From Microbotryum violaceum (taxonomy: Eukaryota): 64,000 bases of DNA. Both the position numbers and the translations under genes were made by a program. Where the stretch lies: assembly GCA_001244265.2 (NCBI GenBank), contig CDLV01000009.1:1736001-1800000 (forward strand). The letters run 5' to 3'. The notes beneath the pieces were generated by a model. The model ran no database searches. It was not told the DNA's origin and saw only the letters and a list, made by a program, of their open reading frames with translations. Positions 2 through 60,923 of this stretch are shown here, piece by piece (the stretch's first letter is position 1; every line of letters begins with the position of its first letter).

Positions 2-1318
<1,317 letters not shown>

Positions 1319-1372
1319 TCATGGAAGAATCATCAAGAGGGGATGAGACGTCCATGTGCGCCGACCTTACTA

Positions 1373-2846
<1,474 letters not shown>

Positions 2847-3905
2847 TCAACGACGAAAGAGTTGGTGCGAAGCTGGCGGCGACGAGCGAGAAGACCGGTG
2901 GCGATACATCCGACATGGTGTTGCGAGTTGGCGATCGAGTTCGCCGTGTCGGCCTTTTTGCCGTTCCGAGAGCCTTTTTGCAGTCGAAAGACCAGTGATT
3001 CTGCTTGCAGGAGCGACAGGGTCCTGGCGGCGGGTGTTTTGCTCTCACAGGGCACTCCGCCACACGGTGCGAAGGGCTGCGACAGGCGAGACACTTGGGA
3101 CGGGTAGGACGTGACGACGACGAGGCAAGAAGGGCCGATTGGGTGCCGGGGACGTTGGTGGACCGGAGTTGAACACGCATGCGGTCGGCGAGCGAATCGA
3201 TGGCAGGAAGAGCTCGTTGAGTGCGCTGTTCATCGGTGAATGACGCCTTGAAACTCTCGAGGGACGGGTGAGCGATGGCGAGGAGTGTGGCAAGAACATC
3301 ATTGATAGTCGTCTTCGTATCGATGATTTCTTGCGCAATAGCTTTGAACTCCATGATCCAGCCGTCGAATTCGCCAACGGTGCCAGGCATGGGCCGGAAA
3401 CTCCATAGTCGGGAGAAGAGCTCGAGCGTGCGAGTGGCGTCGTCAGGAGCATACCGCGATTTCAGCGTCGAGTACATTTTGGGCGCTGTGAGGTCAGCGG
3501 TAGGGATTGCGTCGAGGACTGCCGAGACTTCGGCCGAGTCGATCGAGTTCGCAAGAAGCTCGCGGGCCACGACATCGCGGGCGGAGCGTTGTGAAGGAGT
3601 CCAGTCGACGGGCACGATGCCGTCGAGGACGTACGAGCGGATGTCGTCCGCTAGGCACAGGCGAAGTTGGCGTGTCCAATTTGCAAATGTCTTTGGCCCA
3701 TCCAAGCGTGCGTGCTTGGGAAAGGCGGGGCGGGTGGTACTAGACGACGTGGTGGTTGTGACAGTGCCGGACGCTGCAGCGGTGAGACCCGACAGCAGCG
3801 ATGTAAGGGCGGCAAGCTGGTCGGCGGGAAATGTCGGGTGGACACCCGTCGCTAGGGGTGGCGACGTGTCGTCCATGCCAGCGGTAGCTCGTTGGGCTTA
3901 TAACC

Positions 3906-4288
3906 TATAAGACGATCACCACAACTGTCAGGAGAGGTTGAGAGTCGAACAGCAGTGATGTATTTCAGCATACCTATAAGACGATCACCACAACTGTCAG
4001 GAGAGGTTGAGAGTCGAACAGCAGTGATGAAAAGGAAGCTAAGAAACAAAAGAGGGGCCCGCGCTGGGATAGGCCCAGCCGCGGGTGAAATCGCTAGGGC
4101 GCTGAGGCAGCTGCGCGCGTCTAAGTCGCCACCTCAAGGGGGCGGCCTAGCGGGCGCGCGCCCGAGTCCGCTGGCGCCTGCTCGCTGAGGCAGTCGTGCG
4201 CGCCTAAGTCCCCACCGCAAGGGGGCGGGCTAGCGGGTGCGCGCGACGACCGAGGCGCCTCTGTCGAGCTGAGAGTGGACTCTTCACA
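3906..4288 (-). repeat. 5' LTR of family A (383 bp, TG...TA) with internal 58-bp direct repeat
   Basis: Homologous to LTRs at 10237-10549 and 13460-13773; repeat copies 3903-3960 and 3972-4029; abuts the PBS. Confidence 0.92.
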
Positions 4289-13455
<9,167 letters not shown>

Positions 13456-13459
13456 GAGG

Positions 13460-13773
13460 TGTGAAGAGTCCACTCTCAGCTCGACAGAGGCGCCTCAATC
13501 GTCGCGCGCACCCGCTAGCCCGCCCCCTTGCGGTGGGGACTTAGGCGCGCGCAACTGCCTCAGCGAGCAGGCGCCAGCGGACTCGGGCGCGCGCCCGCTA
13601 GGCCGCCCCCTTGAGGTGGCAACTTAGACGCGCGCAGCTGCCTCAGCGCCCTAGCAATTTCACCTGCGGCTGGGCCTATCCCAGTGCGGGCCCCCTTTCT
13701 GTTTCTTAGCTTCCCTCTCACCAATTCTGTTCAACAATCAACCTCTCCTGACAGTAGTGGTGATTGTCTCATA
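13460..13773 (+). repeat. Family A LTR (314 bp, single-repeat form), no matching TSD
   Basis: TGTGAAGAGTCC...GTCTCATA; exactly 69 bp shorter than LTR 3906-4288. Confidence 0.9.
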
Positions 13774-19189: not shown

Positions 19190-19451
19190 TTGAAAGTCGC
19201 AAAAATGCGAGGGGCTGACAGCTCGTCGCTGGGGATGGCGTCGAGGGCCGCCGATACGTTGGCGGAATCAATAGAGCCAACGATAATCTTGCGGTCAGTG
19301 TCGTCACGGGCGGGCAGCTGCTCGGCCGTCCAGGTAGCGGGGATGACACCGTTGAGAACATAGCTCTGAACCTGGTTTGGGAGCATCAGATGGAGTTGAC
19401 GCAACCAATTTGTAAAAGACTTAGGTCCGTCAAGGCGAGCGTGTTTGGGAA
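19190..19451 (-). pseudogene. Copia gag fragment (family F), inverted relative to adjacent element
   Basis: [19 protein letters not shown]...IDSANVSAALDAIP, homologous to 19963-20220 and to family A gag. Confidence 0.85.
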
Positions 19452-20526
19452 TGTGAGGAATCCACTCTCCGCTTGGCTCAGGACTTAGGTGCGGGGAGCA
19501 AGCCTGGCGCATTGGCCCAGGACTTAGGCGCGCAGAGCGAGCCTGGCCCATTGGCTCAGCCCCGAGGTTTGCTGGCTGAGGATTGGGGTGTGCGGCTCTT
19601 TTACTGTTAGCTTCCTATTCATCATTCTTGGCTATAACTACATCGCTGACATAGTAGAGTTGATCGAATAGGTTGTAAGCCCACAAGCTACCAGCTTTGC
19701 CACTTGCGTTTTTTTTTTTCTTGAGCTCAGCCACTTGAACGCACACATCCATCGCACCATTGCACCATGGACAGCTCTCCCGCCCCGCCTTCGCCCCCCA
19801 GGGATCCCAGCCCCCCTGAATCTTCGATCAGCGTACAAATCGCCACTCTAAAGGCACAGCTTGCTGCCCTGCAGGCCTCGCAGCCCCCTGCCGCCGCTGC
19901 CTCCGCACCCCCGGCCGTCACCGCCACACAGGCCAACACCGCCACCGCATCCAAAGTTGTGTTTCCCAAACACGCTCGCCTCGATGGCCCCAAGTTGTTT
20001 ACAAACTGGTTGCGTCAACTCCGTCTTGCGCTCCCGAATCAAGTTCGTGGTTACGTCCTCGACGGTGTCGTCCCCGCTACCTGGACGGCCGAGCAGCTGC
20101 CCGCCCGTGACGACGCCACCCGGGAAATCATCGTTGGCTCTATCAATTCCGCCGACGTATTGGCCACCCTCGACGCCATCCCCAGCAACAACCTGTTGGC
20201 ACCGCGCATCTTTACCGCTCTCAAGGCTTGTTTTACACCGGACGACGCCACCCGCACTCTCGAGTTGTTTGCCCGCCTCCGTCAAGGCATACGACCCCTG
20301 GCTACGCCATGTCAATTGCACAAGAAATCCGCAACGCCAAAACATTGCTCAATGACGTGCTTGCCACTCACATGCTCGCCATGGTCCCATCTTGCCTCGA
20401 CAGCCTCACGTTCACGGACAAGCAATGCAACCAACGCAACCTCCCCAAACTCACAACGCTGACGGACCACATTCGCGTCCAACTTCGCTCAGCGGGACTC
20501 TCCACCTCACATTTGGCTATGCTCGC
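19452..20526 (+). mobile_element. Copia family F 5' fragment (relative of A): LTR 19452-19670, PBS, gag start
   Basis: TGTGAGGAATCCACTCTC...GAATA then GGTTGTAAGCCC (19671-19682); gag ATG 19767 [11 protein letters not shown]. Confidence 0.85.
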
Positions 20527-23500
20527 AGTTGGCGTGTTGTGAATGAGGATTAGCAGGAAGGCGGCTATCAGTTATTTGATTAGAAGCGCGCGTTTGTTTA
20601 GTGAAGCCTGGCAATGCGCACCTGTTGAATTGCATTCTGCCTATCCTTCTAACACTCCCACTTGGGCCGCCGTTTGACGGACTTGCCCACCTTTTGCCTG
20701 GGCGCCTTTGCCTTGGCGCTTTCACCTCGGGCGCCTTTCGTCCTCGCAGCTAAGCCACCCCCTTGTCCGCGCTGCCCAATCCGCCCCCTTGCTCTCGCGA
20801 CCAAGCCGCCCCCTTGTTTGCTTCCCCCGCGCCCGCCTGTTCAACTCACGTGCGCGCGCCGCTCCCTCCACGCCGGGACTTAGTCATATCCGCGCCTCTC
20901 ACACGTTGCTGAGCCAAGGCCTCCACCTCGCCACAGCCGGTTGCCGCCTCCGACCTCATGGACCACAGGCAATACAGAACATTGCCCCTCCATGAAGTAC
21001 GTTGCCTACCACCTGAAACTCACCGTAACGGATTGCCACCTCCAACAATACCAGACCTTGTGGATAAGTCCTCCCCTAGTGTTTGTCATCCAACACAACA
21101 CCTCTCAGCCTCAATGGCCCACTAAGAGTTTGACCTTATGTGCTTTGCAATGTGATTGGCCAGCTTGCTATAATTCACCCGCGCGCCTGCCTGATAGAAC
21201 TGTGTCCATCCCGTGCTCCCTTGTGCCTTTCTTCCTCTTCTCTACCGCTTCCCATTATTAACCAGACTGCTAATCTTTGGTAGAGAACAGATTGTCCAGC
21301 CGCGCCGCGTCCGTCTCGTCAGACCGTGCCTGTGCCGCCACACGACTTCTCCCCCCCCCCGGCCGACGTCGCACACAGCCTCGTCGTAGCTCCACCAGTA
21401 GCCCAAGCGGTCGCTACTTCCAAGTCCGAAACTTCTTCGGCATCCACTCAACAGCACCAACCGTAGTCTTCTCTCCATGGTTGGATTACACGCTTGTCAG
21501 GTAAGTACATCTAGCATTACGGCTACTATCATATGCAATTAACTGACGGTTGGATCACACACTTGTTAGTCTCTTATTTGGTAGCGTCTGTATTGCCGCA
21601 AGGCACAGATTCGCACGCAGAAAAGACGCAGCGCATATCCAAGATGGCGACACCCACGTCAGTCTGATGGGCGACCTATACGGCAAAGTCGACGCCACCA
21701 ACTGGGGTGTTGCCAGGGAGCGACTTCAGAACGCCCTGAAAGGCGAGGGCCGCCTCAAGCATGTCACCGGTGTTCTAGACGTCGGCCCCGAGCCTTTACA
21801 GTCCGAGTTCACTCGCTTGGAGGGCAACAACCGGGTAGACGATGTGGCCACCTATTGCAACCAACTTCGATTGTACCATCGGGATGTCGACGCTCTCGAT
21901 CAGGCCCTTGCGCAGGCGCGCAACACGCTAATCGTATGCCTGGGGGAGTCCACCTTCGCCCGCGTCAAAGCCAACGCCACGCACGACTTGTGGGCCGCGC
22001 TCGAGCTCGATAAGGATCTTGGTCGCGCTTCGGACGATTTCATGCGCTCAGCGAAGCTCAACGCCCTCTTCTTGTGTGAGCCATTTGTCGACGGCGAAGT
22101 GCTTGACCCATGGCTTGCGAACTTCAACCGGTTGTTTGAGGACCTCGTCGCCGCCCACGTCTCCCGTGACAAAGCCTATCAACGCGCCAGGATCGACGGC
22201 ACATTGTTTACCCAGAGCGATTTCGACAAGTGGGTACCACCGCCCGCGCTGTCCGAGGGCGTTCGCATGGACCTCTTGAAGGCTAGGATGCCGAGGAACC
22301 TCGTGACGGTCATCAACTCCATCGGCACGCTCCCATTGCTCGAGCAAGTTGAGGGCGCGATACGTAGGGCCGCACTTTCCTCGAGCCAGCAGATTGAGCC
22401 CATTGCGGAGGCATTAGCGGCACGGGTGCAGTCTCGGAGTCAGCCAGCCTCGGGTCGTCCTCGCTCAAAACCCTCGGGCCGTCCTTCCGGTACCTTGGCG
22501 CCCCCCTTCCTTCAGGCCTCGAGGGTGCCCGGCCTCAAGGAGAGGTGGCTTCATGGGATCTCACACGCTGGTCGCCTGAAACTGGGTCGGATGCAGTGCA
22601 GAAGGTGCTACAAGCAGGGACATCTTGGCGACGATTGCACGGTGCCGTCGGCAGAGGTCTCTCGCCGCCGCATCGCTGTTCTTGCCAAACACAACATCAC
22701 CATTGGCACGGCCAACGTAATGGCGCTCGTCGCCGTTGACCGTGCACCCGAGGCTCAGCTCGAGGACAAGGCCTACGAGGGATACTTTGTCATCGGCGTA
22801 CCCATTGGTGACGACGACACGGCGCTGTACCTGAGCAACATCCCGCGCTACTTGCTTGATTCGGGTGCGACCCGCCACATGACGACTCGCCGGGACCTCC
22901 TCATCAACTTCAAGCCCTTCACCACGGAGCGCGTCCGGGTCGTTGGCGCCTTCAACTCCAGTGCCATGGCGACCGGTACGGGCACTCTCCGGTTCGGTGT
23001 CGACAAAGCGTCCATTGAGCTCCACGACGTCCTCCTCGTCCCCGGTCTGTCCGCTGAACTCGTCTCACTCGCCGGCCTGATGAAGGACGGGTATGAGCTA
23101 TCCAACGAGTGCGACGCGGCTGGGAAACATACCGGGATCGCGATCTCGAGCGCAACCTCCCGCCTTTCCTTCGCCCTCGATTGCAACCACTACGTGCTTC
23201 AGGCAAGTTCTCACCCACCTCCTCGGGCGGATCACCTGGCGCTGACTGCCACCACCTTGCCTACAGACGTAGTGCTTTGGCATCAGCGCTTGGGTCATCC
23301 TTCTTGGGGTCGTTTGGTAGAGCTTGTTAGGTCGGGTCAAATTCCACTCAATGTAGCAGCTGTAACTCCGGATCAGAGTCGCCTCCTCGATCAGTGCGAT
23401 GCTTGTTGCGCCGGTAAAACCGTCTCTTCCCCGAACCGGGAACCCGCGAGCCACCCCGCGGACGCACCTTTCTCCCGTGTCTTTGCCGACGTGTGGGGTC

Positions 23501-26214
23501 CTTCCCCTGTGCCCGCACTTTCGGGTGCTTGTTACCTCTGCGGCATCACGGACGAGTTTTCGCGCTTCCGCTGGGCTCGCAGCATCCGGCTCAAGAGTGA
23601 CTTGGCAGCCATCCTTCAGGATTTTGTTGCAATGTCAAAGACCCAGTACGCGGGCCAGGGCATCACGACGCTGCGCACGGACAGAGGGGGCAAGTTTGTG
23701 AACCACAGGCTCCGGGATTGGCTCGCTGCGCGGGGAATTTTCCACGAGCTCTCCACAGCGTACGAGCACAGCCAGATGGGTGTTCAGGAACGCAGCTGGC
23801 GAACGATCTTCAACTCCGTTTGCGCCTGGCTCCATCGCTCGGGACTGCCTCCCGCACTTTGGGATGAAGCGACGCACGCCGCGATCTACGCCATAAATCT
23901 GCTCCCCTCGTCGCCGCTCCAGCAGCGCACCCCAGACTCTGTGCTGCACGAACCCTCGGACCCGGTCACGGACACCCGCCGCCCCCGCCTCGACCGTGTC
24001 AAGACCTGGGGCTGTGCCGCTCATGTGCCGCTCGCCCCCGAGCAACGTCCCAACAAGCTGGCCCCGTGATCCCGCCTCTGCTACTTTGTTGGCTACTCCT
24101 CGCGATCCAAGGCCTGGCGCTTCTTCAATCCGGTTCGCAACAAGGTCTTTGAGTCGTCTCAGGCCAGGTTCTTTGAGGACCGTTTCTTTCCCGCTGCAGT
24201 GAGCCCTGCCATGCCTGCCATCCCTGTTGCGGTCGGTTTGTCTTACCCGCCCGTGCCGCTCGGCATCGGTTCCGCCGCTGCGCCCCCTGTCGCCAAAGCG
24301 CCGGCCATGGCTCCCGCTGCCGCCGCTCCGCCACCCGTTCCGCCCGCCCTCGCATTTTCGGACCCTGGCCCGGCAAACGCACCGCCCGATGGTGATCACT
24401 CCACTCGGACCCGCCGTCCGCCTGACTACCTCGGATTTGCTCACGCAGCACAGCATTGGGAGTTTGCTGACCACGCAGCCATCCAGTTCGATGACTTTGA
24501 CAAAGGTGACCCTGACACGCAGATGTACTCGTTTGAGGAAGTCTCTGCGCTCCTCGCCAAGATCGACAGCGATGACACTCCTTCGGTCTAGGCCACCCTT
24601 GCTGGCCCCTTTCGTGATTACTGGCTGGCCGCCATGTTGGTGGAGGAGGGAGCTCTCGCCGCTAAGAATGCGTTCTCCAAGCCGGTTCGACCCCCGCCCG
24701 GGGCCATTGTCATCGGGAGCATGTGGGTGCTCCTCGTCAAGCGCAATGCGGAGGGTCAAATTGTCAAGTACAAAGCTCGACTTGTTGCGCGCGGGGACAT
24801 GCAAAGACGTCCGGGGGTGCATATCAATTGGTTCTTGCCCACAGGTCGAGCCGCCTCTCATTGACTGTTACTTGCCCTCGCCGTCAAGAACGAGTGGGAG
24901 ACCCGCCAGTTCGACGTCTCGTCTGCATAGCTCAACGGCAACCTCGGCGGGACCGAGATCTACATGCGACTACCCGGAGGTGATATTGTGCGCTTGCAGC
25001 GCGCTCTCTACGGCCTCGTTCAGGCGGGCCGCAAGTGGTACAAGGTCTTCACTGAATGGATCCTGTCCATTGGCTTCACCCGCACCAACAGTGACCATGC
25101 CGTTTTCGTTCGCAAAGAGGGGGATCGACGGTCTTTCCTCTCCATTCATGTCGACGACGGTCTGCTCACCGGTGACGGGGATCTCGACGGCGTGCTCTGT
25201 CAGCTCAAGGCTCGGTTCGAAGCTCGCAGCACCGACGAGGCTTCCTTCTTCCTCGGCCAGAGCATCCGTCGTGAGGGCAAGACGGGTGCTGCGATTGTCA
25301 ACCAGGGACATTTCGTCGATGCCATCCTCGAGGAACACCACATGGCCAATGCCTCCCCCCGCCCCACGCCTCTAGCGGCTCCGTCGACTCTGAGGAATCG
25401 CGCTGACTCCGGTTTTGATCCTGCCTCGATCCCCTATCGCGCCATTGTAGGCAAGCTCTTATACCTCTCTGGCACCACCCGACCCGACATCGCGTTCGCC
25501 GTTTCAAAGGCTGCTTATTTCTGCAATGACTTCACGGCGGAGCATTGGGAGGTGCTCAAACACATCCTGCGCTACCTTGTCGGTACCCGCAATTTTGGCA
25601 TCCGCTATCAGAAGTCCTTCCAGCCTATGTCGGCAATCTTGGAGGGATTTGTCGATGCTGATCATGGCGCCGACCCGGTCACTCGCCGGAGTGTCTCGGG
25701 CTACGTGTTCATGTGCGCTGGTGGGGCTATCTCTTGGATCGCCAAGCGACAGACTCTCGTCACCCTCTCCAGTACCGAGGCCGAGTATGTGGCCATGTCA
25801 TACGCCGCTCGCGAGGGGATTTGGTTACGTCGTTTGCTTGCGGATCTTGGCTTCGAGCAGACCGCTCCGACTCGTTTGCAGGGTGACAACCAGTCCGCCA
25901 TCACTCTGGCCAAGCACCCGGCTTTCCATGCTCGTACCAAACATATTGGCATCCACTTTCACTTCATCCGGGACCACATTGTGGAAGGCACGATCAAGAG
26001 GTCTGGGCGCCCACGGGCACCATGGCTGCGGATGTCCTCATCAAGGGGCTCGGGACACAGAAGCACTATCAGTTTGTACACACAATGGGGCTTATAGATT
26101 CATCGCGTGAAGGGGCGAGTTGGCGTGTTGTGAATGAGGATTAGCAGGAAGGCGGCTATCGGTTATTTGATTAACAGCGCGCGTTTGTCCTCGCGACTTC
26201 TCCACCTGGGAGTC
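20527..26214 (+). mobile_element. Ty1/copia family D, near full length with nonsense mutations; 5' LTR carries extra sequence, 3' LTR truncated
   Basis: AGTTGGCGTGTTGTGAATGAGG at 20527 and 26118 (the latter after PPT GAAGGGG); PBS TGGTAGCG 21579-21586; [54 protein letters not shown]. Confidence 0.92.
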
Positions 26215-26600
26215 TGTTAAATTCCATACACTCTTGCTTAGATCGATCTCCAATCCGCGCCGGGCCTAGCCGGCCGCGCCGCTTGGACCTCTCCTTGGAC
26301 TTAGAGATATTTCGCACACTCACGCCTCTTTAGTCTTCCCCCTAACGCTCCAAACTACTCCCTTACAACCGTACTCTGTCTCGTGTACTTACTGGTTGCC
26401 GATCCAGTCTCCCTCGAGGAGTACGAGTCTACAGGTTATGAGCCCGAGCTCACGCTGCTACAACGATACAACGATGCCAACACCATCACCGTCACTTGCG
26501 ACCATCATGTTTGTCCCCGTCACCATCATCGTTCTGTACCACACCTTTGCCACCGCCCTCGCCCACGCGACCGGACGTTACCGCACCGAGACCTTTGCTG
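26215..26600 (+). mobile_element. Copia family E 5' LTR (26215-26433) + PBS + start of internal region, truncated
   Basis: TGTTAA...CTACA immediately followed by GGTTATGAGCCC (26434-26445). Confidence 0.7.
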
Positions 26601-26615
26601 GAGACTGACAAGGAG

Positions 26616-28356
26616 ATGAAGTCCGACTTGTTGTCGGACGCGATGGACACCGACTCCGACGCGTCGTTGCCTCCAGCCTCTTTCTCACCGTCGGAAAACC
26701 TGCGATCCGCCAATGTTACCAACTGCACAGCTAATCGCTCTTCCATTCTGGAAACTCCACTCGTTGATACTTGGGTTTCCCAATTCTGGCCCGAATCGCC
26801 CGAAGTGTCCGACGACCGGTCTGACCTTCTTGACAGGCTGAGGGTGTTTTGCACCCATCACTTTCGCATGAACTACCGCTTAATACAGGCTCTTCAGGAC
26901 CACCTAGAGATGTTGGTTTAGAACTTGCGGGACAACGCTACGCGAATCGGGCAAAGAAATACGCCGGCAGACGACCCGGCCACGGGCTGATGAGGTGTTT
27001 GGATGTGGATCGCAATCGCGACCACGACCTTTTCTTGACGGATATTCGCATGAGCAAGAAGGCATTTGACGAGTTACACAAAGCTGTGAGTTCCTTATGA
27101 CCGTGTGATATCACAGGTGTTTTAGTCTGTGGCCTGAACATCTTGCCCATGTTTTGTCAGATAAAGGATCACGCCGTGTTCAAATCCCGAGGAAGAAAAC
27201 CTCAGACACCGACTAAAATCCAGCTCGCCGTCGCTTTGTGGCGCTTTGGTGGCTACGGCAACAGGGCATCGGCAAAGGCGGCCGCTGAATGGTCCGGTTG
27301 CAGCATGAGATCAGTGGTCAAATTTACCTACAGAGTTCTGCTAGCGCTGAACGAACCGAGTTTTAGTCGCCGAATCATACGTTGGCCCAATCAGGCGGAG
27401 CGCGAGCTGTTGAAAGCGTGGATGGAGAGCAAAACATACCCTGAATGGAGGAACGGATGGTGCATGGTTGACGGCTCTCTCATTGAGCTGTCGCGCACGC
27501 CACAGTGGTTTGGCGCAAGCTTCACCAGTCGAAAATGCCGGGCCGCTCTCAATATTCAAGTGAGTCCTGCTTCTCTACACGCTATCTAGGCACTCTGAAC
27601 CAACCGCGCGCAACCTTCTTGCTTCCAGATTGTCAATACACCAGATGGACGCATCATCGATTATACTACTGGTTCGCCCGGGTCGGCCACCGACGTCACC
27701 ATTTGGAGACAATCGAGGACTCACAATCTTCGAGAAACACTTTTGGATCCAGAAGACTTCGTTCTCGCGGACTCGGGCTATCCTTTGGAAAGCTGGGTGC
27801 TCAGTAAGCAGATGGTCTGTTTTTTTCCTGCAGGCGCCCAATATCTGACAAACTTGTTGTGCAATGCCTACACCAGCTCCTTATTCCCGCGGGGAGCGAG
27901 ACTCGACAAAACAAGCGTTTCAATTACTATGTCTCATGTGCACGCTGTGGATCCGAGCACACCATCGGCTATCTCAAGTCTCGGTTTCAGTCCTCGAAGC
28001 GGCTCGCGCTCCGCATCAACTCTAAAGACCAATTCGAAATTGCAAATCAGTGGGTTAGCGCATGCATCGTTGCACATCGATTCGCAACCGAGGTCGACTG
28101 GTTTGTGGGCAAGTTCGATTACCATCGGCCAGTCGAACCTGAGGAACCAACACGCGAGCAATACGAACGCGTTCAGCGCAATGAAGCGGGAGCCAGCACC
28201 CCGGCTGATAATGATGAAACACAGCAGTTGGACTTAGATCAGGCAGCGAATCAGTCCAAAGCGGTACAGCGTTGGGCTGAGCTCCGCATAGCCAAGTCGA
28301 TTCGAGATCGTAGACGCAGCGAAATACTGAGACATCATCCTTTGAGGAGACCATGA
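26616..28356 (+). pseudogene. PIF/Harbinger DDE transposase with three introns (27086-27160, 27560-27628, 27804-27876), frameshifted
   Basis: RMSKKAFDEL; QLAVALWRFG HTH; GWCMVDGS (D), PGSATD, LADSGY (D), EHTIGYLKSRF (E); GT-AG introns rejoin the motifs. Start approximate; TIRs not found. Confidence 0.88.
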
Positions 28357-29106: not shown

Positions 29107-39159
<10,053 letters not shown>

Positions 39160-41617: not shown

Positions 41618-44373
41618 ATGACGACCATCAACAAGGCGATCGCGCCCGTGCCGACGGCACAAGAGTTCCTCGATGTCATCCTTTCCAAGGTACGTCATTT
41701 CCCAAGGCCTGGTGGCCACCGGCGAGCCTGGGACGCGCGAACCTCTTTGGCCCACTCGGCTGCGAAGGACGGGGGAATAGGGCCCCGCGCGGCCGTCACC
41801 GATCGCCGAGCCCAGTCTCGTTTCGAGGGACAATAGCAACTTACGATTGTGTTCCTCTCCCCGAAAAATGCTTGATTCTATTAGACGCAACGCAAGACGC
41901 CCACCGTCATCCGTAGTGGTTTCAAGATCACGCGTATTCGCTCCTTCTACATGCGCAAGGTGAGCGGCCTCCCCACTTTCGACGGACGGACTGGCGCCGA
42001 GGGTGGCTAACGGTGGACTATATCTTATCAACTCTCTCGCACAGGTCAAGTTCACGCAGCAGTCGTTTGAAGAGCGCTTGGACCAGATTTTGAGCGAGTT
42101 CCCGATCATGGAGGTGAATAATTGGACTGATTGCGAGTGGGCGTTCGTGAGCCATCCTGACCAATTCGGTTTGGCGCCGCATCATCTTTAGAACCTCCAC
42201 CCCTTCTTGTCCTCGCTCCTCAATGTTCTCTACGACAAAAATCATTACAAACTCGCGCTCGGTCAGCTCAATACCGCGCGCCACCTCATCGTTTCGGTCG
42301 GCAAGGACTACTGCCGCCTCCTCAAGTTCGGTGACAGTTTGTTCCGATGCAAGCAGCTCAAAAAGGCCGCCTTGGGTCGGTAAGTACACAACTTTAGTCG
42401 CAGTTCCACCCGGGAAGCCGAAGTTGACCCGTCTGCTTGCACTGTGCAGAATGGCCACCATCATGCGAAGACAAAAGGACCCTCTCGCCTATCTCGAGCA
42501 AGTTCGCCAGCACATGTCTCGTCTACCGAGCATCGATCCGACAACCCGCACGTTGCTGGTGTGCGGGTACCCCAACGTCGGAAAGTCGTCTTTCGTCAAC
42601 AAAATCACGCGGGCCGACGTCGATGTGCAGCCTTACGCCTTCACCACCAAGAGCTTGTTTGTCGGCCATATGGACTACAAGTACCTGCGCTGGCAGGTGA
42701 TTGACACCCCCGGGGTGCTGGACCATCCGCTGGAAGAGATGAACACGATTGAAATGCAGAGCATCACCGCGCTCGCGCATCTACGCAGCTGTGTCATGTA
42801 CTTTATGGATCTCAGTGAACAGTGTGGCTACACCGTCGAAGCCCAAGTAGGTCGTCGCGCCCTTCCGGCCTGAAGCTCTCGCCGCAGATTACAGTTTTTG
42901 TACTGATATTCCACTTTTTGGGGTCTCCTCCAGTGTCAACTATATCAATCGATCAAGCCCTTGTTCACCAACAAGCCCACTTTCATCGTCGTCAACAAGA
43001 TTGACGTCACTCGCCCCTCGGACCTGGACCCGACCCGACGAGCAATGCTGGACGCCATCCTCGCGGAAGGCAACGTCCAGTTGCTCGAGCTCTCCTGCGT
43101 CTCCGAAGAGGGTGTGATGGGCGTGAGGAATGCTGCGTGTGATGCGCTTCTCCAACACCGAGTGGAAAGCAAGGAAAAGACGAAGCGAGTCGACAACGTG
43201 GCGAACCGTGTTCGCGTCGCTGTTCCGGTTAAGCGCGACACTGTGGACCGAACGCCCTTCATTCCGGATGCCGTTAAGACGCGCAAGACTTACGACAAGA
43301 ACGACCCGGAGCGTCGACGACTTGAGCGTGACGAGGAGGCGGAGAACGGAGGCGCTGGCGCATACATGATGGACTTGAAGAGTCAGTCATCACGCGCGTC
43401 CCCAGCCGCCGATTTAAATTGACGTGCGCAACCATGCCCCCTTTTATACAGAGCACTACCTTTTGGCCAACGACGATTGGAAATACGATGTCATGCCCGA
43501 ATTGCAAGACGGCAAGAACGTCGCAGACTTTATCGATGCTGATATCGTGGCTCGACTGGAGGAGCTTGAAGCCGAGGAGGAGCGCTTGGAAGCTGCTGGA
43601 TTTTACGACGAGGATACGGACGAGGTGGGTGGGTTGGTGCAACGAAGGGCAAGAATTGGCCATGGAACTGACCCCTGGACTGATCTTCTTCATTCGCAGG
43701 ATTCGGACGAAGAGGCTATCCGCACCGCGGCGTCGACAATTCGCGATAAGAAAGCGAATATCCGTCTCCTCAACCAGCAAAAAGACAAGCTCCAAAACCG
43801 GCCCATCATCCCTCGAACCGTACAACGACGAACGCTTTCCGAGATGACGTCCAAGCTATCCGAAGCGGGTTACGATGCGACCAACTTGGAAGAACGTGCC
43901 AAGATGTTGGCCAAGGCCCGCGGCCTCATCGGTCGCAAGCGAGAGGCCGGTGAGATGGACATTGACGAGTTCAACGGGGGGGCAGATGATGGCGAGGGGG
44001 ACTGGGTCGAAGCGGACGAGAGTATGGACCATGACGGCCCGCGGAAACGATCCAAGACGGGCACCAAGTCCATCGTCCCCAGTGGCAAGAGGCTGCCCAC
44101 CAAAGATCGACAAGTGGCAGGTCTGCGCGATGCGGAACAGGCGGCCAAGGCCGTGCGCCTGCGCCAGCTGTACCAGCGCGAACCGAATCGTTTAGCCAAA
44201 GCCTCCGAATCAGATCGTCACATTCGTACAAAGATGCCCAAAGTCAGGCAAACCACCCCTTCCTGTCGCATTGGCTGCCGTAGTCACAGAACTGACCGAA
44301 CCCCCTTTATCCTTGGCACTCACAGCATTTGTTCTCGGGCAAGAGAAAGGCAGGCAAGACGAACCACAGGTGA
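41618..44373 (+). CDS. NOG1: Nucleolar GTP-binding protein 1 (multi-exon)
   Basis: [49 protein letters not shown] motif [14 protein letters not shown]; ends [13 protein letters not shown]. Confidence 0.97.
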
Positions 44374-45105
44374 TCCGCGAATCGGGATGCTTGGCAGATT
44401 TTGTCTTGTTATTTTCGCACATCATGGCCTTTCATGTCTTTACTTAGGTTCGAGTTCGTATCCGCACATCGACATATATTTCCAGCCACGTAATTCTAGC
44501 AGCCCAGAGCTTCACTACTCTTTGACTTTTGTAATGCAATATCGAGCTTGTCTTCGGTGTCGGGAGCACGTGGTGATGGATTATCCGGGCGGGCCCACAT
44601 CCGCGCCTGGGTGAGTGTAAGGTATGCGCCTCTGATGTGCATAAAATACAATCTGTCGTTCTTGACCACTAGACTAAAAGCAAGTCGTAACTAGAACTCG
44701 GCAGTTCTAGCTACTCAGAGGCTACTTATAGGGCTGTTCTGTAAGGCATCCCCTCTACCTACAAATAAAAAATAAAAAATAAAAAATTACAGTGAGCTCG
44801 TCGAATTGCGAAAAACGTGGCAGTCGGCAAGAAAATGTTCTCAAAGAAAACATTGCACATTGAAAAGATCTTGCTATTCTGTATACACTCATCCTCGAAC
44901 GCTCTCAAATCTTTCCGCCCCTCTCCGCCCCGGCGTTGTGTGCGCACCTAATAATGATCCGGACCAAATCGAAAGCTCTCTCGAAAGGCGGAGGGGGTCT
45001 TCGACCCCACGCTGCCGACCTCCCCGCCTTTCGCCGCTTCACCCATAACCCTTCTTCGGCCCGTGTTCCCGCCAGCCCCCACGAAGTGCGCTGAGCGATG
45101 CAGTG

Positions 45106-49123: not shown

Positions 49124-51243
49124 CTACACCACCGCAGCTTTGACCGTCTTGCCACGTTTATGCTTGCCGACTGAGGACTTGTTTCCCGCGGTTGCTTTGG
49201 CGCCACCTCCGTTGCTCTGCAGTATTGCGTTCTTCTTTCTGTTCGTCTCTTGTCTCTTACCGAACCCATCCGCGAGTTCCATGTTACCCATTCTCTTGGC
49301 CATCGAAACCGCGCTCAGCAACTCCAGCACAGCTTGTTCCGGTAGCTCAAGTTCGTGCAATTTGGTATCTGCGTACCCCAAAGACGTTGAGGGGTGGTCA
49401 ATGACCCGCGCAAAAACGCACTTTCTCGAATCGAAACCCAACCGCTCAAAGACGTACTAATACGTTCCTCAAGCGCCTGAACCAACTCGACGTCTCCTTC
49501 CGTGACGACGGTAATACTCGTACCTTTGCGACCCGCACGCGCGGTCCTACCAACCCGATGAACATAATCATCCGGAACCCTGGGTACTTCCCAATTCAGC
49601 ACGACTTCGACTTCGGGAATGTCCAATCCTCGACTGCCGACGTCAGTCGCGATGAGCAGCGGTACCTGTTGCCTTCGGAACGACGACAGCGACTGCAATC
49701 GCTCCGATTGGGAGAGATGGGAGTGGAGGGCCGTACAAGGAATCGGATTCGGTAAATGACCGAGAAGTGAGGTGAACAGTGCGGCGGTACGGCAATGCGG
49801 CACGAAGAGGATCGTTTGGGGTAATCGAGGGGTCGAAGCTTCCTCGGCAGAAGGCGAACTGGCACGTTTCGTTCGTTTCAATGGTCGTTCCCCTCCACGA
49901 CTTTTGTGATTCAAAGTTGAAGCATCAATACTGGCTTGCACGGGTTGAGCACCGGTGAGGTCGCAGAGATTCAACAGGAGGTAGACGAGGTACACCTCGC
50001 GTACTTGGGAAGGAATGAAAAGATATCGTTGCACCAACCCAGCCGGAGTCGTGATTCTGATCATTCCAGAAAGAGCTGTCAGCTCGGACGTTCGCATCGG
50101 GGCGTTGTAAGATTTCGAGAGATTCGAGTGCTCACGCATTCCGAGAAACGTGGATGAACGGCGGGGTTTTACCGGGGACCGTCTGGCGCTTTTGGAGAGC
50201 CATCACGGGTTCCGTCAAAGTGGCGGTGAAGAGCAGACTTTGTCGTTGAGAGGGCAACTGATCGACGAGGAACGCCAAATCAGGTGCGAATGTCGGCGTC
50301 AACAGCCGGTCGGCTTCATCAAGGACCTGTATGAGTTCAATCGACGAGAGAAGGTCATGGCCGAGTTCGAATTTTCCAGTTTCGTCTGTTCGTCAATCGA
50401 TTTTCGACAGTCTAGCATCGGACTTACGAGATACTTGACCTTGCCTAGGCTCCATTCGTCCTTGTTGCTCCTGATCAAGTCAACCAAACGGCCCGGTGTA
50501 GCGATGATGACGTGGGGTCTTTTACGGAGTTCAATCGCTTGGGCCATCATGTCCATGCCTCCGACGATGACGGCCGAATGAAGGTTCACGGCTGCGCCGA
50601 TGACCCTGAATTGTTCCGAAATTTGAAAAGCGAGTTCCCTGAGTAGGTAAAAAAGGCAAAGTGAGCTGAGATTTCCCCTACGCTGCAATCAAGTCAGGTA
50701 CTGACCGTGTCGGAGTGAGAACGAGAGCAAAGAAGCCGTGCGGATCTTTGGCGAAGTCTTGCATGATGGGAAGGGCGAAAGCGATCGTTTTGCCCGAACC
50801 TGTTTGCGCACTTCCGATGCAGTCGCTGCCTGTGAAAAGACCAGGAGTACTAAAATGAGCATTCGACGGGATAGCGCCTGATACGAGATGGGTTGTGGCT
50901 GCGACGAACCCGCTAAAATGGGAGGAATGCACGCCGCCTGTACCTCGGTCGGCTGTCGAATCGACATGGCTTGCAGGGCGTTGCACAAGAATCGTTCTAC
51001 ACCCAGCTGTGCAAACGAGGTCGGGGTCTTGGTCGTCGTCGAAGGAAGCTTCTCCGTCACGGTGGCCGTGGTCGCCGTGGTCGCCGTGGTCGCCTTGTTC
51101 GTCGCGGCATCCTCGATTGAAGCAGCATGTTCCAACGTGACTCGTGAGGTCGTAGCCACGGGCATCGATCTCGAGGGTGGCTGTGTTATCGGGTCGCTCA
51201 GATCCGACTGGGTATCGGATGAAGAATCGCTCGACATGTACAT
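49124..51243 (-). CDS. DBP8: DEAD-box RNA helicase Dbp8/DDX49
   Basis: Q motif [61 protein letters not shown]. Confidence 0.92.
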
Positions 51244-56755: not shown

Positions 56756-57190
56756 CGACGGGAAAACCTCGCGCTGCGCCAGACCAAGACGAAGAAGCCT
56801 ATACGGGATGACGGGATTGTCGAAACTGCAATAGAGCTACCGAAATAGAAAGCAAAAAGCATCGACGACTCCCCTCTGCTTTCCATCATGCATGTTTCGA
56901 ATCGGGACGATAGCTCGATCCTTCTCAATGATGCCCCGCGGAGGATGCAGTAAGAGAGACAATATCAGGCACTACTTTGCAGATTATCCGTGCTCAGAGG
57001 ACAGTTCTTTATCAATTCACGTCCCCCTTATTCAGTCCAGTCAGCGTTCGATCCTCTAACGTCTTTTCTGCAGGGACTGAAGAACCTCTGTGCGGATGAA
57101 GGAGTAAAACGACTTGAGAACCATCCATTGCATCAATCGCACCACATCTCGCTACCCCAACCGCTGGGGAGAACCTTCCGCTTGATCACT

Positions 57191-57769
57191 TCATTTACAG
57201 GATCGGATTATGATGCAGCTCAACGCACACGAAAAAGATCTTTGATTCACAGAGTAATCGAAGAGAAGGCTCGGGAGTCAAACTTTGAGCCAAGAGGGGG
57301 ACATCTTCGAAGAAAAGGACTTACGACGGTCGCGATGGTTGGTTTTCGCATTCCTTGGTGCATTCTCTTTGGTTATGAATGCGGTGTTGTTGTTTTTTGA
57401 AGCAGCAGAAACGTAGGACAGAGGATTGAATGGGACAGTTAGTCGCAAGGCCTGACGACGCACGCAACTGAATCTTATATAAAGTGCGCACTTGCAGGAT
57501 AGGAGTTCATCGCTTGAACGGCGTGAAACCTTGTAAGCTGGGCTAGCGGCATCGTTGGTATTGTAGCCAGTCGTAACGCTTGATCAATGCAGCCAATGGA
57601 AGGTTCGGCGGTCAGCAGGCGAACGCAACGATTCCCCACCAGGGGCTTGTGCCGCAACGCACCGGTGCTCAGGGGTGGTCTCCGTCTGAACGGCGACCGG
57701 AGTAGCCAAGGTGACCTGACCGAACCAAGCACAGTGCAAGAAGATGATAGCGAAGTAGTGGGAGCGCAT
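57191..57769 (-). CDS. Small secreted 6-Cys protein, copy 1 (~94 aa, 4 exons)
   Basis: Signal-like MRSHYFAIIFLHCAWFGQVTLA; splicing gives ...VSRRSSDELLSCK|ECTKECENQPSRPS|SFSCALSCIIIRSCK*; exon structure and Cys spacing conserved in copy 2. Confidence 0.7.
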
Positions 57770-59143
57770 CTTCGTCTTCTCTCCTTCTCAAAAACGTATG
57801 AAGCAGAGGAAGAAAGAGAGAGGATCATTCCGTCTTGTGAGAGAATACGACCGGACCTGGGTTCGGTCCCGACATTTCATCCGTTTGATCGCGTCATTGC
57901 CTTCTGAAACCTGACTAACAGACACTCCACTCCCAACCGTGGTACTCGGGAGCCAGTCGGAAGCTTTCAAGGCCAACACGATTCGGTAGCAAGTTCCGGA
58001 CTTGGCCGAAGCACCAGGTCACCCTCCAGCGGTCAATCAGGTCAACTACGCCGGTTGCGGCAAGTACCTCATGAAGCGCTCCCGTGTGAATTTAGTACTT
58101 TGGTGTCTCGCGGCCAACTGCAAATGCATGCAATGCACACGGACGATTGGGCCGAACGGGAGGAAGAGGAGGTGATTATGAAGAGGCCCTTCACTTTTGT
58201 GCTTCGGCGACTCGGAGAACGTGGAGCAATGGTGGGAAAGTAGGCCGGCACTTAGAAGGAGGACCGGGCCGGACGAGCAACAACCAGGAAGAGGGGCTGA
58301 CTGAGGTAGTGAGACGGCTGGAATATCTAGGACGTCTCGACCGAATTTGCTTATTGTTCTTCGCGGAAAGGACTTCTGCGATCCAATACCTGCCTCTCGC
58401 TTTCTGCGTGTTTCAAGTCTCGCAGGGCGTCGTTCTCTAGTAACGCGTGCGCAGTCTCGCCGCCTCGTTCCCACGCGCGGCCTCGTTCCTCGTTTCTACC
58501 CCTTTCCGCGCTCTCTCCTTCCAACCCCTTTCTCTCTGCCGTTCCGGTCACTCTGTCCGCCTCTCTCACCTTGGGTGCCTGCGCACCCCACATGAATAGG
58601 AAGCCCAATTGTTCGTTAGGTTTTGCGCTTGGTAGAACAATATGCCGGCATGTGGCGATGTGGCGGCAACTCATGACCGTTTGTCAGATTAACCGATGGT
58701 CCTTTATCAAGTCGCGCCCCCCTTCCCCAGTTCAGTCAGCGATCGATATCGCAGAAAGTGGACGAGCCTGTCAGATAGACTTTCGATAGGATAGGTAACG
58801 AGGCCGAGAACTCAGGACCACAATGTAGAGCGAGTGAGGAGAAAGCCGCTACCGAGAGTAAACAGCCGCGCGGGAAGAAAGCCCCGCGCAGACCCTAACT
58901 TCAATAGATCAAACTCCACTACCTTGAAAGTGACTAATGACTGAACGCACCCGCACCAGCGCAGATACGACTACCACAGGCACAGACACATATCAAATGA
59001 CATTCGATCTTAGACGTCTTTTCTGAGGGGACAAAGAACCCCCGTGCGGAGGAAGGGGTAAAACGATCTGAGGACCATCCATTGCATCAATTGCACCACA
59101 CCCCGCTACCCAACGGCTGGGAAGGCCGTTCCGCCTGAACACT

Positions 59144-59758
59144 TCAGTGGCAGAACTTTCCGAAAACGCATTTCATCGTACACCAGAGAGATCTTTGGTT
59201 CGCGCGGTGTTTTACGTACGAAGTCGAAAGAAGAAGGCTCTGGGTCAGACTCCTGAGCCAAGAAGGGGACTCCTGCTTGCAAAATAAGTACTCACTGCAA
59301 CCAGGGGTGCGATGTCGGGCTTTTACAGTCTTTGATGCATGATCTTCATTTATAAAAGTTGTGTTTTCCATGTAGCAGAAACGTAGGACATATGAGTTCA
59401 AGATGTCAGTTCGTCGCAAGCTTTGACCGTCCGGCGGAAAACCTGATTCTTATCCAAAGTACGCACTTGCAGGTCGGATTTTCATAGCTTGCGAGTTGGT
59501 TTGCAATGTTGTAAACTGTGCTAGTGGTATCGTTGATCTTGGAGCTAGTCACAATGCTTGATAAATGAACAAACTGGAAGCGTCGGTCAGCACAGGGCGA
59601 ACGCAAGGATTCCCCCCCACCAGGGGCTAGGTTGTAAGTTGTTCCGCAACGCACCGGTGCTCGGGTATGTTCTTCTGAAAGGCGACCAAAGTATCCAGGG
59701 CGACATGACCGAACCAAGCACAGTGCAACAAGATGATAGCGAAGTAGTGCGAGCGCAT
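59144..59758 (-). CDS. Small secreted 6-Cys protein, copy 2 (4 exons)
   Basis: MRSHYFAIILLHCAWFGHVAL...ENPTCK|SCIKDCKSPTSHPWLQ|SLWCTMKCVFGKFCH*. Confidence 0.68.
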
Positions 59759-59790
59759 TTTCGTATTTTCCTTCTTGAGAACGTAAGAAG

Positions 59791-59993
59791 TGTCAGAGTG
59801 TATATTGCTGTTTCATCCCACTTCTATTACCGATCATGATTAGTTACTAGTTGTTGATATTAGTCGCCTCGCGCGGCTATTGCTTGCCTCGCGCGCTCCT
59901 ACTCTGCGCTTCTCTTCTTTCTCTAACTGTCTTTACTATCATCCTCGGCTCTCGTACTAAACGTATCTCGTGCCTCGGCTTTAGGTTCTAATA
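59791..59993 (+). mobile_element. Solo LTR related to copia family C (203 bp, TG...TA)
   Basis: TSD AGAAG 59786-59790 and 59994-59998; absent at the paralogous site ~57800; shares CTAGTTGTTGATATTAG and TCGGCTCTCGTACT with LTR C. Confidence 0.92.
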
Positions 59994-60737: not shown

Positions 60738-60923
60738 CATCGAATCGATCCGAGCACACTCAACGCTCCCGAACTGACACCTGAACGTTGGCAGTGGCGC
60801 ATCGAATCGATCAGAGCACACTCAACGCTCCCAAACTGACACCTGAACGTTGGCAGTGGCGCATCGAATCGATCAGAGCACACTCAACGCTCCCGAACTG
60901 ACACCTGAACGTTGGCAGTGGCG
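60738..60923. repeat. 62-bp minisatellite, 3 copies
   Basis: CATCGAATCGATCAGAGCACACTC...TTGGCAGTGGCG at 60738, 60800, 60862. Confidence 0.95.

Follow-up and report, generated by a model that had tools for sequence, protein, structure and literature searches.

The 5' long terminal repeat (LTR) of a Ty1/copia element, located within the 64-kb stretch of Microbotryum violaceum DNA analysed here (64,000 nucleotides, hereafter the window), carries an additional 69-nt unit that is, with a probability of about one half, a duplication-born proto-intron of the Rogers type, probably spliceable and inherited via unspliced RNA. The unit is built around a short filler placed between two copies of the LTR tail, and the same repeat-filler-repeat design (X-filler-X) is found in two other element families of the window, B and D. 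What makes the observation interesting is above all this recurrence across three families.

The window consists of nested retroelements alongside a few host genes, which include NOG1 (41618-44614) and a helicase C-terminal domain (49315-50202). The element bearing the 69-nt unit, assigned to family A, comprises the following features.

3906..4288, minus strand: 5' LTR of family A, long form, 383 bp, starting with TGTGAAG at 4288 and ending ...TTATA at 3906, followed by the PBS
3891..3905, minus strand: primer-binding site (PBS), presumably of the half-tRNA(iMet) type, GGTTATAAGCCC at 3905->3894, one base off the canonical 12-mer
2..3890, minus strand: internal region of this A copy, in three frames, running off the window start
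2239-3897, minus strand: gag/protease part, with Pol_BBD and gag_pre-integrs (Pfam)
1370-2404, minus strand: integrase part, with rve and SH3_retrovirus (Pfam)
2-1318, minus strand: reverse transcriptase (RT) part, with RVT_2 (Pfam, E 1e-58)

This copy possesses an RVT_2-type RT with the integrase upstream of it, all in one polyprotein direction, and the Pfam domain order gag-PR-IN-RT assigns it to Ty1/copia. Its gag ATG is located at 3876-3874 of the minus strand. The partner 3' LTR lies beyond the window, and target duplications are readable only for families B and D. The same copy also holds a plain, perfect tandem duplication of 111 bp at 2564-2785, the sense strand of which is, by eye, devoid of AGGT.

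Comparison of the window with itself (blastn) bears out the LTR sizes given in a preliminary description of this DNA, namely 383, 314 and 313 bp at 3906-4288, 13460-13773 and 10237-10549, respectively, and the minus-strand LTR end ...TTATA at 3906 and the PBS start at 3905 read as quoted there. The same comparison reports that segments 3903-3960 and 3972-4029 are identical at 58 out of 58 positions, with 11 unique bases between them, a match within the long A LTR that far exceeds chance. The additional 69 bp of the long LTR therefore represent one turn of a tandem duplication, and the repeat block starts directly after a CT-rich tract. It is organised as follows.

3972..4029, minus strand: repeat copy X1 of family A, the final 55 nt of an ordinary LTR followed by GGT
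3961..3971, minus strand: filler of family A, 11 nt, between repeat copies X1 and X2
3903..3960, minus strand: repeat copy X2 of family A, the LTR tail (3960-3906) plus the first three PBS bases
3905..3973, minus strand: candidate intron of 69 nt, with GTATGC at 3973, CTGAC, and TAG ending at 3905

The filler has a G+C content of 27% (3/11 bases; 31% for the 13-nt stretch 3961-3973), and its ATG opens an upstream ORF of 39 codons that overlaps the gag start. Its 11-mer returns one other exact match in the window (35091-35101), which is within chance, and a k-mer search of the window for filler sources reports only chance-level hits, with the exception of one 11-mer of family D.

The 69-nt unit resembles a U2-type intron in its ends, its donor, the distance of its branch motif and its length when compared with six host introns, all located in NOG1 and read from ORF pieces. 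The A of the branch-like CTGAC lies at 3928, at a distance of 23 nt from the unit end, and the final G of the acceptor TAG is the first PBS base. The NOG1 introns, 70-195 nt in length, exhibit the donors GTACGT, GTGAGC, GTGAAT, GTAAGT, GTAGGT and GTCAGT (GTNNGY in 5/6), the branch-like motifs CTTAC, CTAAC, CTGAC, TTGAC, CTGAT and TTGAC, and TAG or CAG acceptors; the C at donor position +6 of the A unit occurs in one of the six. The units of families A, D and B measure 69, 80 and 62/87/125 nt, respectively, as against the 70-195 nt of the host, the value of 62 falling just below this range. Once the 69-nt unit is deleted, LTR and PBS read exactly as they do in the short form, which is found in a contig of sequencing run X1 (see below). 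The unit thus shares with Rogers-type introns a tandem duplication bearing AGGT, an intron that resembles the upstream exon, and an excision that restores the ancestral sequence, and, judged from these sequence features, it may be a newborn intron.

Most of these signals have a simple origin. The LTR ends with A and the PBS starts with GGT, so that duplication of this AG|GT provides the unit with its GT...AG ends. What is new in the A unit is donor positions +3 to +6 alone, all other signals being copies of the LTR tail and PBS. The branch-like motif and acceptor text also occur in the short A LTRs and in the related LTR F, and since they are copies of an ordinary LTR tail and PBS, they are no evidence for splicing. 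The 69-nt intron of the preliminary description therefore stands as to GT, CTGAC, TAG and a length that fits host introns, with the reservation that most of these signals are duplicated LTR tail and PBS. An unlikely, though by no means negligible, alternative follows from this: the unit would be a plain, never-spliced duplication, an accident of RT or of host replication/repair devoid of function, its resemblance to an intron being due to the A at the LTR end, the GGT of the PBS and chance, and the short LTRs being the normal state. It agrees with an AG|GT that exists by construction in A, and possibly in D as well, where the repeat ends ...CA+GGTT. The perfect identity of the A copies points to youth. 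Tandem repeats also abound in these LTRs and in the coding region of A, where the 111-bp repeat indicates that simple duplication is common here. Against it stand sizes within or near those of host introns for all three units and a branch-like motif at a host-like distance. Moreover, host genes contain numerous short GT-AG introns whose signals are loose, so a transcribed unit such as this would presumably be hard to hide from the spliceosome.

The ready-made AG|GT is not a peculiarity of this copy. The canonical PBS 12-mer, which presumably pairs with the half initiator Met tRNA (anticodon stem-loop), sits at 26434 and 29391, and the window contains six PBS-like 12-mers for 0.66 expected, five of the six being preceded by A. 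The A|GG junction is therefore generic for this element class, and every such element has an AG|GT at hand where the A of the LTR end meets GGT. A search for tRNA genes in the 64-kb window, for comparison with the PBS, found none. According to parts of PMC1181622 and PMC5371799, priming in hemivirus-type copia elements starts at nucleotide 40 of a half initiator tRNA, and an oligonucleotide in a paper on Met-tRNAi ends with the same 12-mer, in a passage that gives no purpose for it. The t6A37 modification is described in PMC10275265. A possible detail, which would fit A, not B, is that plus-strand DNA stops just after GGT, at base 37 of the half-tRNA with its modification.

One statement of the preliminary description about the acceptor did not hold. 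It had placed the acceptor AG at the LTR/PBS junction only; the duplication took in three PBS bases along with the LTR tail, so that ...TTATAG|GT is also present at 3975-3972, within the long LTR. It had also expected a 3' LTR to be without the acceptor G unless its flank starts with G, and the short LTR at 10237 happens to precede a G. Three further LTRs are of concern here.

10237..10549, minus strand: short family A LTR, 313 bp, after a G run (polypurine tract), a 3' LTR
13460..13773, plus strand: short family A LTR, 314 bp, without a PBS after it and without target duplication
19452..19682, plus strand: LTR F, related to A, with a single tail copy and the PBS-like 12-mer GGTTGTAAGCCC at 19671

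The LTR at 10237-10549 belongs, as 3' LTR, to a second A copy (13459->10551), and neither short A LTR pairs with the long LTR at 3906-4288. LTR F (19452-19670) is, as had been described, single-copy and ends ...GCTGAC...AATA, followed by GGTTGTAAGCCC at 19671. Likewise, the D-group tail is found in single copy in D', a relative of family D at ~59790-59993, and in the C LTR at 26127-26433. Since F and D' (and C) hold a single tail copy, the comparison points to the short LTR state as ancestral, in agreement also with a plain duplication. The sister LTRs had been described as one intron shorter. The 69-bp difference is real, and the loss of one repeat looks identical: collapse of the 58-nt direct repeats, by RT or by the host, would yield the same product, so the short sisters are uninformative on splicing, a sister lacking one intron looking no different from a sister lacking one repeat. 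Gain and loss of such repeats is documented in retroviruses, another point in favour of a never-spliced duplication; according to the part of PMC3187697 concerned, a single cycle suffices for retroviral RT to delete a 110-bp repeat in 41% of cases, and retroviral LTRs vary in the copy number of their 50-75 bp direct repeats.

Contigs from four sequencing runs (X1, X6, X16 and X18), among the 24 listed, provide an independent view of the long LTR; none of the 24 is listed as RNA, and X1 is of unrecorded kind. In run X1, a 534-nt contig comprising LTR, PBS and gag covers 3695-3902 and 3972-4288 with three mismatches in 525 nt and skips exactly 69 nt, the position of the cut fitting 58 positions equally. 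This skip is observed in one of the four runs (X1). A short sibling, almost identical in sequence and continuous with PBS and gag, thus exists as DNA or RNA, and its joint would look the same after splicing or repeat loss. Contigs that span the filler and reach into both repeat copies, with 9-11 mismatches, are found in two of the four runs (X1, record 6 at 3910-4001; X16, record 11 at 3912-4026). Run X6 exhibits loose ends at 3961, the filler edge, that read like the start of a variant repeat copy X2, and run X18 is without cover over 3929-3965. The long form is therefore real beyond this exact copy, and the question whether the duplication is unique to it, raised in the preliminary description as a possible refutation, is answered in the negative by the diverged long-form contigs of runs X1 and X16. 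These contigs also bear on the very improbable case of a false 69-bp stutter in this assembly. Only 71% of the words sampled from 3300-4400 are present in the best-matching run, and its window-like contig lacks the 69 nt, as such an artefact would have it; the filler is, however, unique sequence, the filler-spanning contigs come with their own variants from independent runs of two other studies, and the same design is present in families B and D. A profile built from three RT sequences had 129 matching stretches in a metagenome collection, none of which was confirmed, and an exact 32-nt LTR-start pattern returned no match.

The LTRs of families B and D contain the same X-filler-X block.

8956..9184, minus strand: 5' LTR of family B, with repeat copy X1 at 9042-9089 and a donor-like GTGTGT at 9041
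4596..4886, minus strand: 3' LTR of family B, with repeat copies X1 at 4744-4791 and X2 at 4619-4666 (48/48)
29107..29390, plus strand: 5' LTR of family D, with repeat copies X1 at 29241-29303 and X2 at 29321-29383 (62/63), the PBS being at 29391
38910..39159, plus strand: 3' LTR of family D, older-looking, with the same 80-nt unit at 39070-39149, its 63-nt block pair being 57/63 identical

Family B is delimited by the target duplication CAAAC (9189-9185 and 4595-4591). The unit of its 5' LTR measures 62 nt with the AG at 8980, or 87 nt with the AG completed by the PBS G at 8955, while that of its 3' LTR, with the donor-like site at 4743, measures 125 nt and includes additional 24-nt repeats. 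The 48-nt block ends exactly at CAG, and the 29-nt filler, for which k-mer matches in the window are scattered, starts with GTGTGT. The 3' LTR runs on for 23 nt past repeat copy X2 (4596-4618), and this tail shares an in-register 11-mer with the start of the A block (p 0.0006). Since the LTR continues after X2 and shares this 11-mer with A, the ends of the B unit are not PBS-derived; the AG|GT of B was thus not made by the LTR/PBS junction, and at no time did the B block abut the PBS. A never-spliced duplication leaves this exact AG|GT boundary unexplained. The two B LTRs differ in the repeat block by two extra 24-mers and a 15-nt indel, and this difference in repeat number, despite a clean target duplication, shows ordinary instability, as a plain duplication would also lead one to expect.

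Family D is a bounded insertion with the target duplication GTCAA on both sides. Its 80-nt unit (29301-29380) starts with GTTAGT, ends with CAG and is present in both LTRs, which means that it either survives reverse transcription or originates during it. The D filler (17-20 nt) contains an ATG that opens an upstream ORF of 31 codons, one of its 11-mers is found in the integrase region of D itself, and the end of the D repeat, ...CA+GGTT, looks like an old LTR/PBS junction.

In all three families (3/3), the block starts right after a CT-rich tract and the unit combines a GTNNGY start with a YAG end. The donor pattern GTNNGY is shown by 1003 of the 7441 GT sites of the window (13.5%), so that its presence in 3/3 units has a nominal p of 0.0025 for what are post hoc cases; three such donors against a 13.5% background speak against a plain duplication, and pure chance seems a poor explanation for the B and D units. 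The X sequences of the three families are unrelated to each other. With 31-45% G+C against 56% for the window, the fillers are relatively AT-rich, and their similarity is weak: a 7-mer between B and D (p 0.02), a 5-mer between A and D (p 0.12), and nothing significant between A and B. Common descent of the X-filler-X design was dropped as an argument, the filler similarity being weak.

The duplication-born proto-intron can be pictured as follows. A template switch during reverse transcription would duplicate the block and leave a few foreign bases at the joint; the block extends from the likely RNA 5' end to the primer or its vicinity, much as a double round of strong-stop DNA synthesis would leave it. 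The resulting unit would probably be spliced, at least partially, out of the 5' leader, given its host-like signals; since these signals lie in a transcribed leader, partial splicing has the better odds. Splicing would restore the normal leader and remove the upstream ATG of the filler. The unit itself would be inherited through unspliced RNA, and the short LTRs would represent the unduplicated state or collapse of the 58-nt repeat rather than intron loss, so that regeneration is unneeded. Further slippage may follow the duplication, as the unequal LTRs of B suggest. The long forms look young, the A repeat copies X1 and X2 being 100% identical and the close relatives short, and because of this apparent youth, selection on splice signals would have had little time.

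The preliminary description had gone further and suggested that splicing would be confined to the 5' leader, as a regeneration model requires. Under standard strand transfer, however, both new LTRs acquire the sequence between R and the PBS from the RNA 5' end, which rules out classical regeneration of an intron located there. The idea survives in one special form, which we consider improbable. If we assume that R extends from repeat copy X1 through the filler and into X2, the unit would be spliced in the 5' leader, kept in the 3' R (in A, the 3' copy would stay unspliced as the G of the acceptor is missing there) and rebuilt in both LTRs. Strong-stop DNA made on the spliced leader would be the complement of X1; its landing on X2 of the 3' R would be followed by copying of the filler, X1 and U3, and the unit would be regained, X2 being overwritten by X1 in each cycle. 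Landing on X1 instead would give progeny with short LTRs. This scheme would account for the required identity between the upstream exon and the 3' part of the 'intron', and explain why X1 equals X2 (58/58, 48/48 and 62/63) in three families with unrelated X. The presence of the unit in both D LTRs, a short sibling that differs from the long copy at three of 525 bases, a block that starts at the likely RNA 5' end, and fillers that are AT-rich (31-45% against 56% G+C), as a poly(A) region might be, also fit it. Yet the acceptors of B and D lie inside the LTR, so their 3' copy could be spliced too; the weak filler similarity leaves long-term concerted evolution unsupported; youth explains the identity of X1 and X2 equally well; and the close relatives carry the short form. 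The prior is also low, as nothing comparable was found in the open-access literature. Of the regeneration claim, only the form with landing on X2 is thus workable.

New spliceosomal introns are rarely caught at birth, and retroelements are expected to lose introns that are spliced from the genomic RNA. If the units are spliced, the window would hold intron birth by tandem duplication in three families within 64 kb, in an unusually clean case where the exon and intron copies are still identical. The spliced and unspliced outcomes would leave countable descendants, the short and long LTRs, and intron origin and intron retention by retroelements would both be testable in one organism. If they are not spliced, the units would represent a recurrent RT error at the strong-stop/primer region of half-tRNA-primed elements, mainly of specialist interest. 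Regeneration, if true, would let a retroelement retain an intron though its spliced RNA is the replication template, and might determine whether transcripts read through the 5' LTR or form their 3' end at the 3' LTR.

Several known systems share parts of this architecture. In retroviral leaders, a splice donor is located near R/U5, the intron extends far beyond the LTR, and the genomic RNA is unspliced. In 'split-intron' vectors, reverse transcription rebuilds an intron via LTR copying. Both resemble the present elements in having splice signals in or beside the LTR. We know of no natural element with a whole intron inside the LTR tail, and full-text term searches of open-access papers and preprints found no account of such an intron or of a regeneration mechanism. 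Repeat change by retroviral RT is alike in that LTR repeats of tens of bases are gained or lost by template switching, and in that the loss is precise, so that its product equals the spliced form (PMC3187697, in the part concerned). According to the same part, the retroviral repeats are mostly U3 enhancers, whereas here a leader block is affected, extending from the likely RNA start to the primer, and, unlike the retroviral repeats, it comes with a filler and splice-site ends. Duplications produced by non-homologous RT recombination are described for HIV-1 in a passage of PMC12115494.

The hemivirus copia elements (copia, Ty5, 1731 and Osser), as presented in parts of PMC1181622 and PMC5371799, have in common with the present elements the gag-PR-IN-RT order with RVT_2, a PBS directly after the LTR with a 12-mer presumably of the anticodon stem-loop type, and 5-bp target duplications, seen here in B and D. 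Those parts describe no leader duplication or LTR intron, and, unlike the hemivirus type, the A copy has a PBS one base off the canonical 12-mer.

The closest likeness is with the model of Rogers (1989), in which an intron arises from the tandem duplication of an AGGT-bearing segment, as exemplified by vertebrate ATP2A1 (Hellsten et al. 2011, PMC3265369, in the part concerned); potato RdRp is another case of a duplication-born intron (passage of PMC4974935). In these cases, as for the candidate intron here, the intron resembles the preceding exon and sits between two AG|GT copies, its removal restores the original RNA, and donor and acceptor are present at birth. In contrast, the duplicated segment here is non-coding, made of a retrotransposon LTR tail and the first PBS bases, and a filler of 11-29 nt supplies donor positions +3 to +6. 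The design here recurs in three element families. Lastly, unlike in the Rogers cases, the RNA that hosts the unit is the template of replication, so splicing would erase the unit from the progeny.

Three of the five LTR-adjacent copies of the primer-binding site (PBS), which is probably of the half-tRNA(iMet) type, lie one transition away from the canonical 12-mer. They accompany the family A copy (a minus-strand Ty1/copia element), the copia element B and the A-related LTR F:

3894-3905: PBS of the family A copy, one transition off canonical
8944-8955: PBS of element B, one transition off canonical
19671-19682: PBS next to LTR F, one transition off canonical

The transitions in all three copies fall at anticodon positions, which suggests decay or relaxed pairing at these positions. 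Within its protease-integrase part, the family A copy also carries a perfect head-to-tail duplication of 111 bp, or 37 codons (2564-2785), the units being 100% identical; no filler separates them, and their sense strand lacks AGGT.

In the leader block, the LTRs of element B (4596-4886 and 8956-9184) are set apart by two additional 24-nt repeats and an indel of 15 nt, but elsewhere they differ at only 3 of 196 bases. Element B, with its unequal LTRs, nevertheless exhibits a clean target duplication, CAAAC. Just past its 3' LTR begins an ORF with a CCHC-like knuckle (4289-4784, minus strand), which is cut at 4288/4289, where the A element has inserted. In the copia element D, a 10-nt tandem duplication opens the 5' LTR (29107-29127) and is absent from the 3' LTR; a LINE-like reverse transcriptase (RVT_1, 32492-33832) is nested in this element.

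Positions 9480-10245 are the reverse complement of 10380-11143 (97%), forming a tail-to-tail inverted duplication (9480-11143) that covers the 3' end of the A internal region together with a portion of an A LTR. Either this palindromic rearrangement is genuine or the assembly is at fault here. Two 262-nt inverted arms (19190-19451 and 19963-20224, 82% complementary) enclose LTR F and ~290 bp beyond it. Further along, a 62-bp unit is present three times (60738-60923, 97% identity) among diverged duplicated segments, 57047-57803 being similar to 59003-59790.

The LTR within 26127-26445 resembles the upstream LTR at 20527 over its first 71 nt only, and a fragment of a DDE_Tnp_4 (PIF/Harbinger-type) transposase lies downstream of this LTR and its PBS (27599-28237). 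Given that this LTR comes after a polypurine tract and the terminal part of a copia element (ORFs 21547-26097), and that a canonical PBS directly follows it, two elements seem to have it in common. For such LTR-sharing complexes, template switching has been proposed (PMC1950507).
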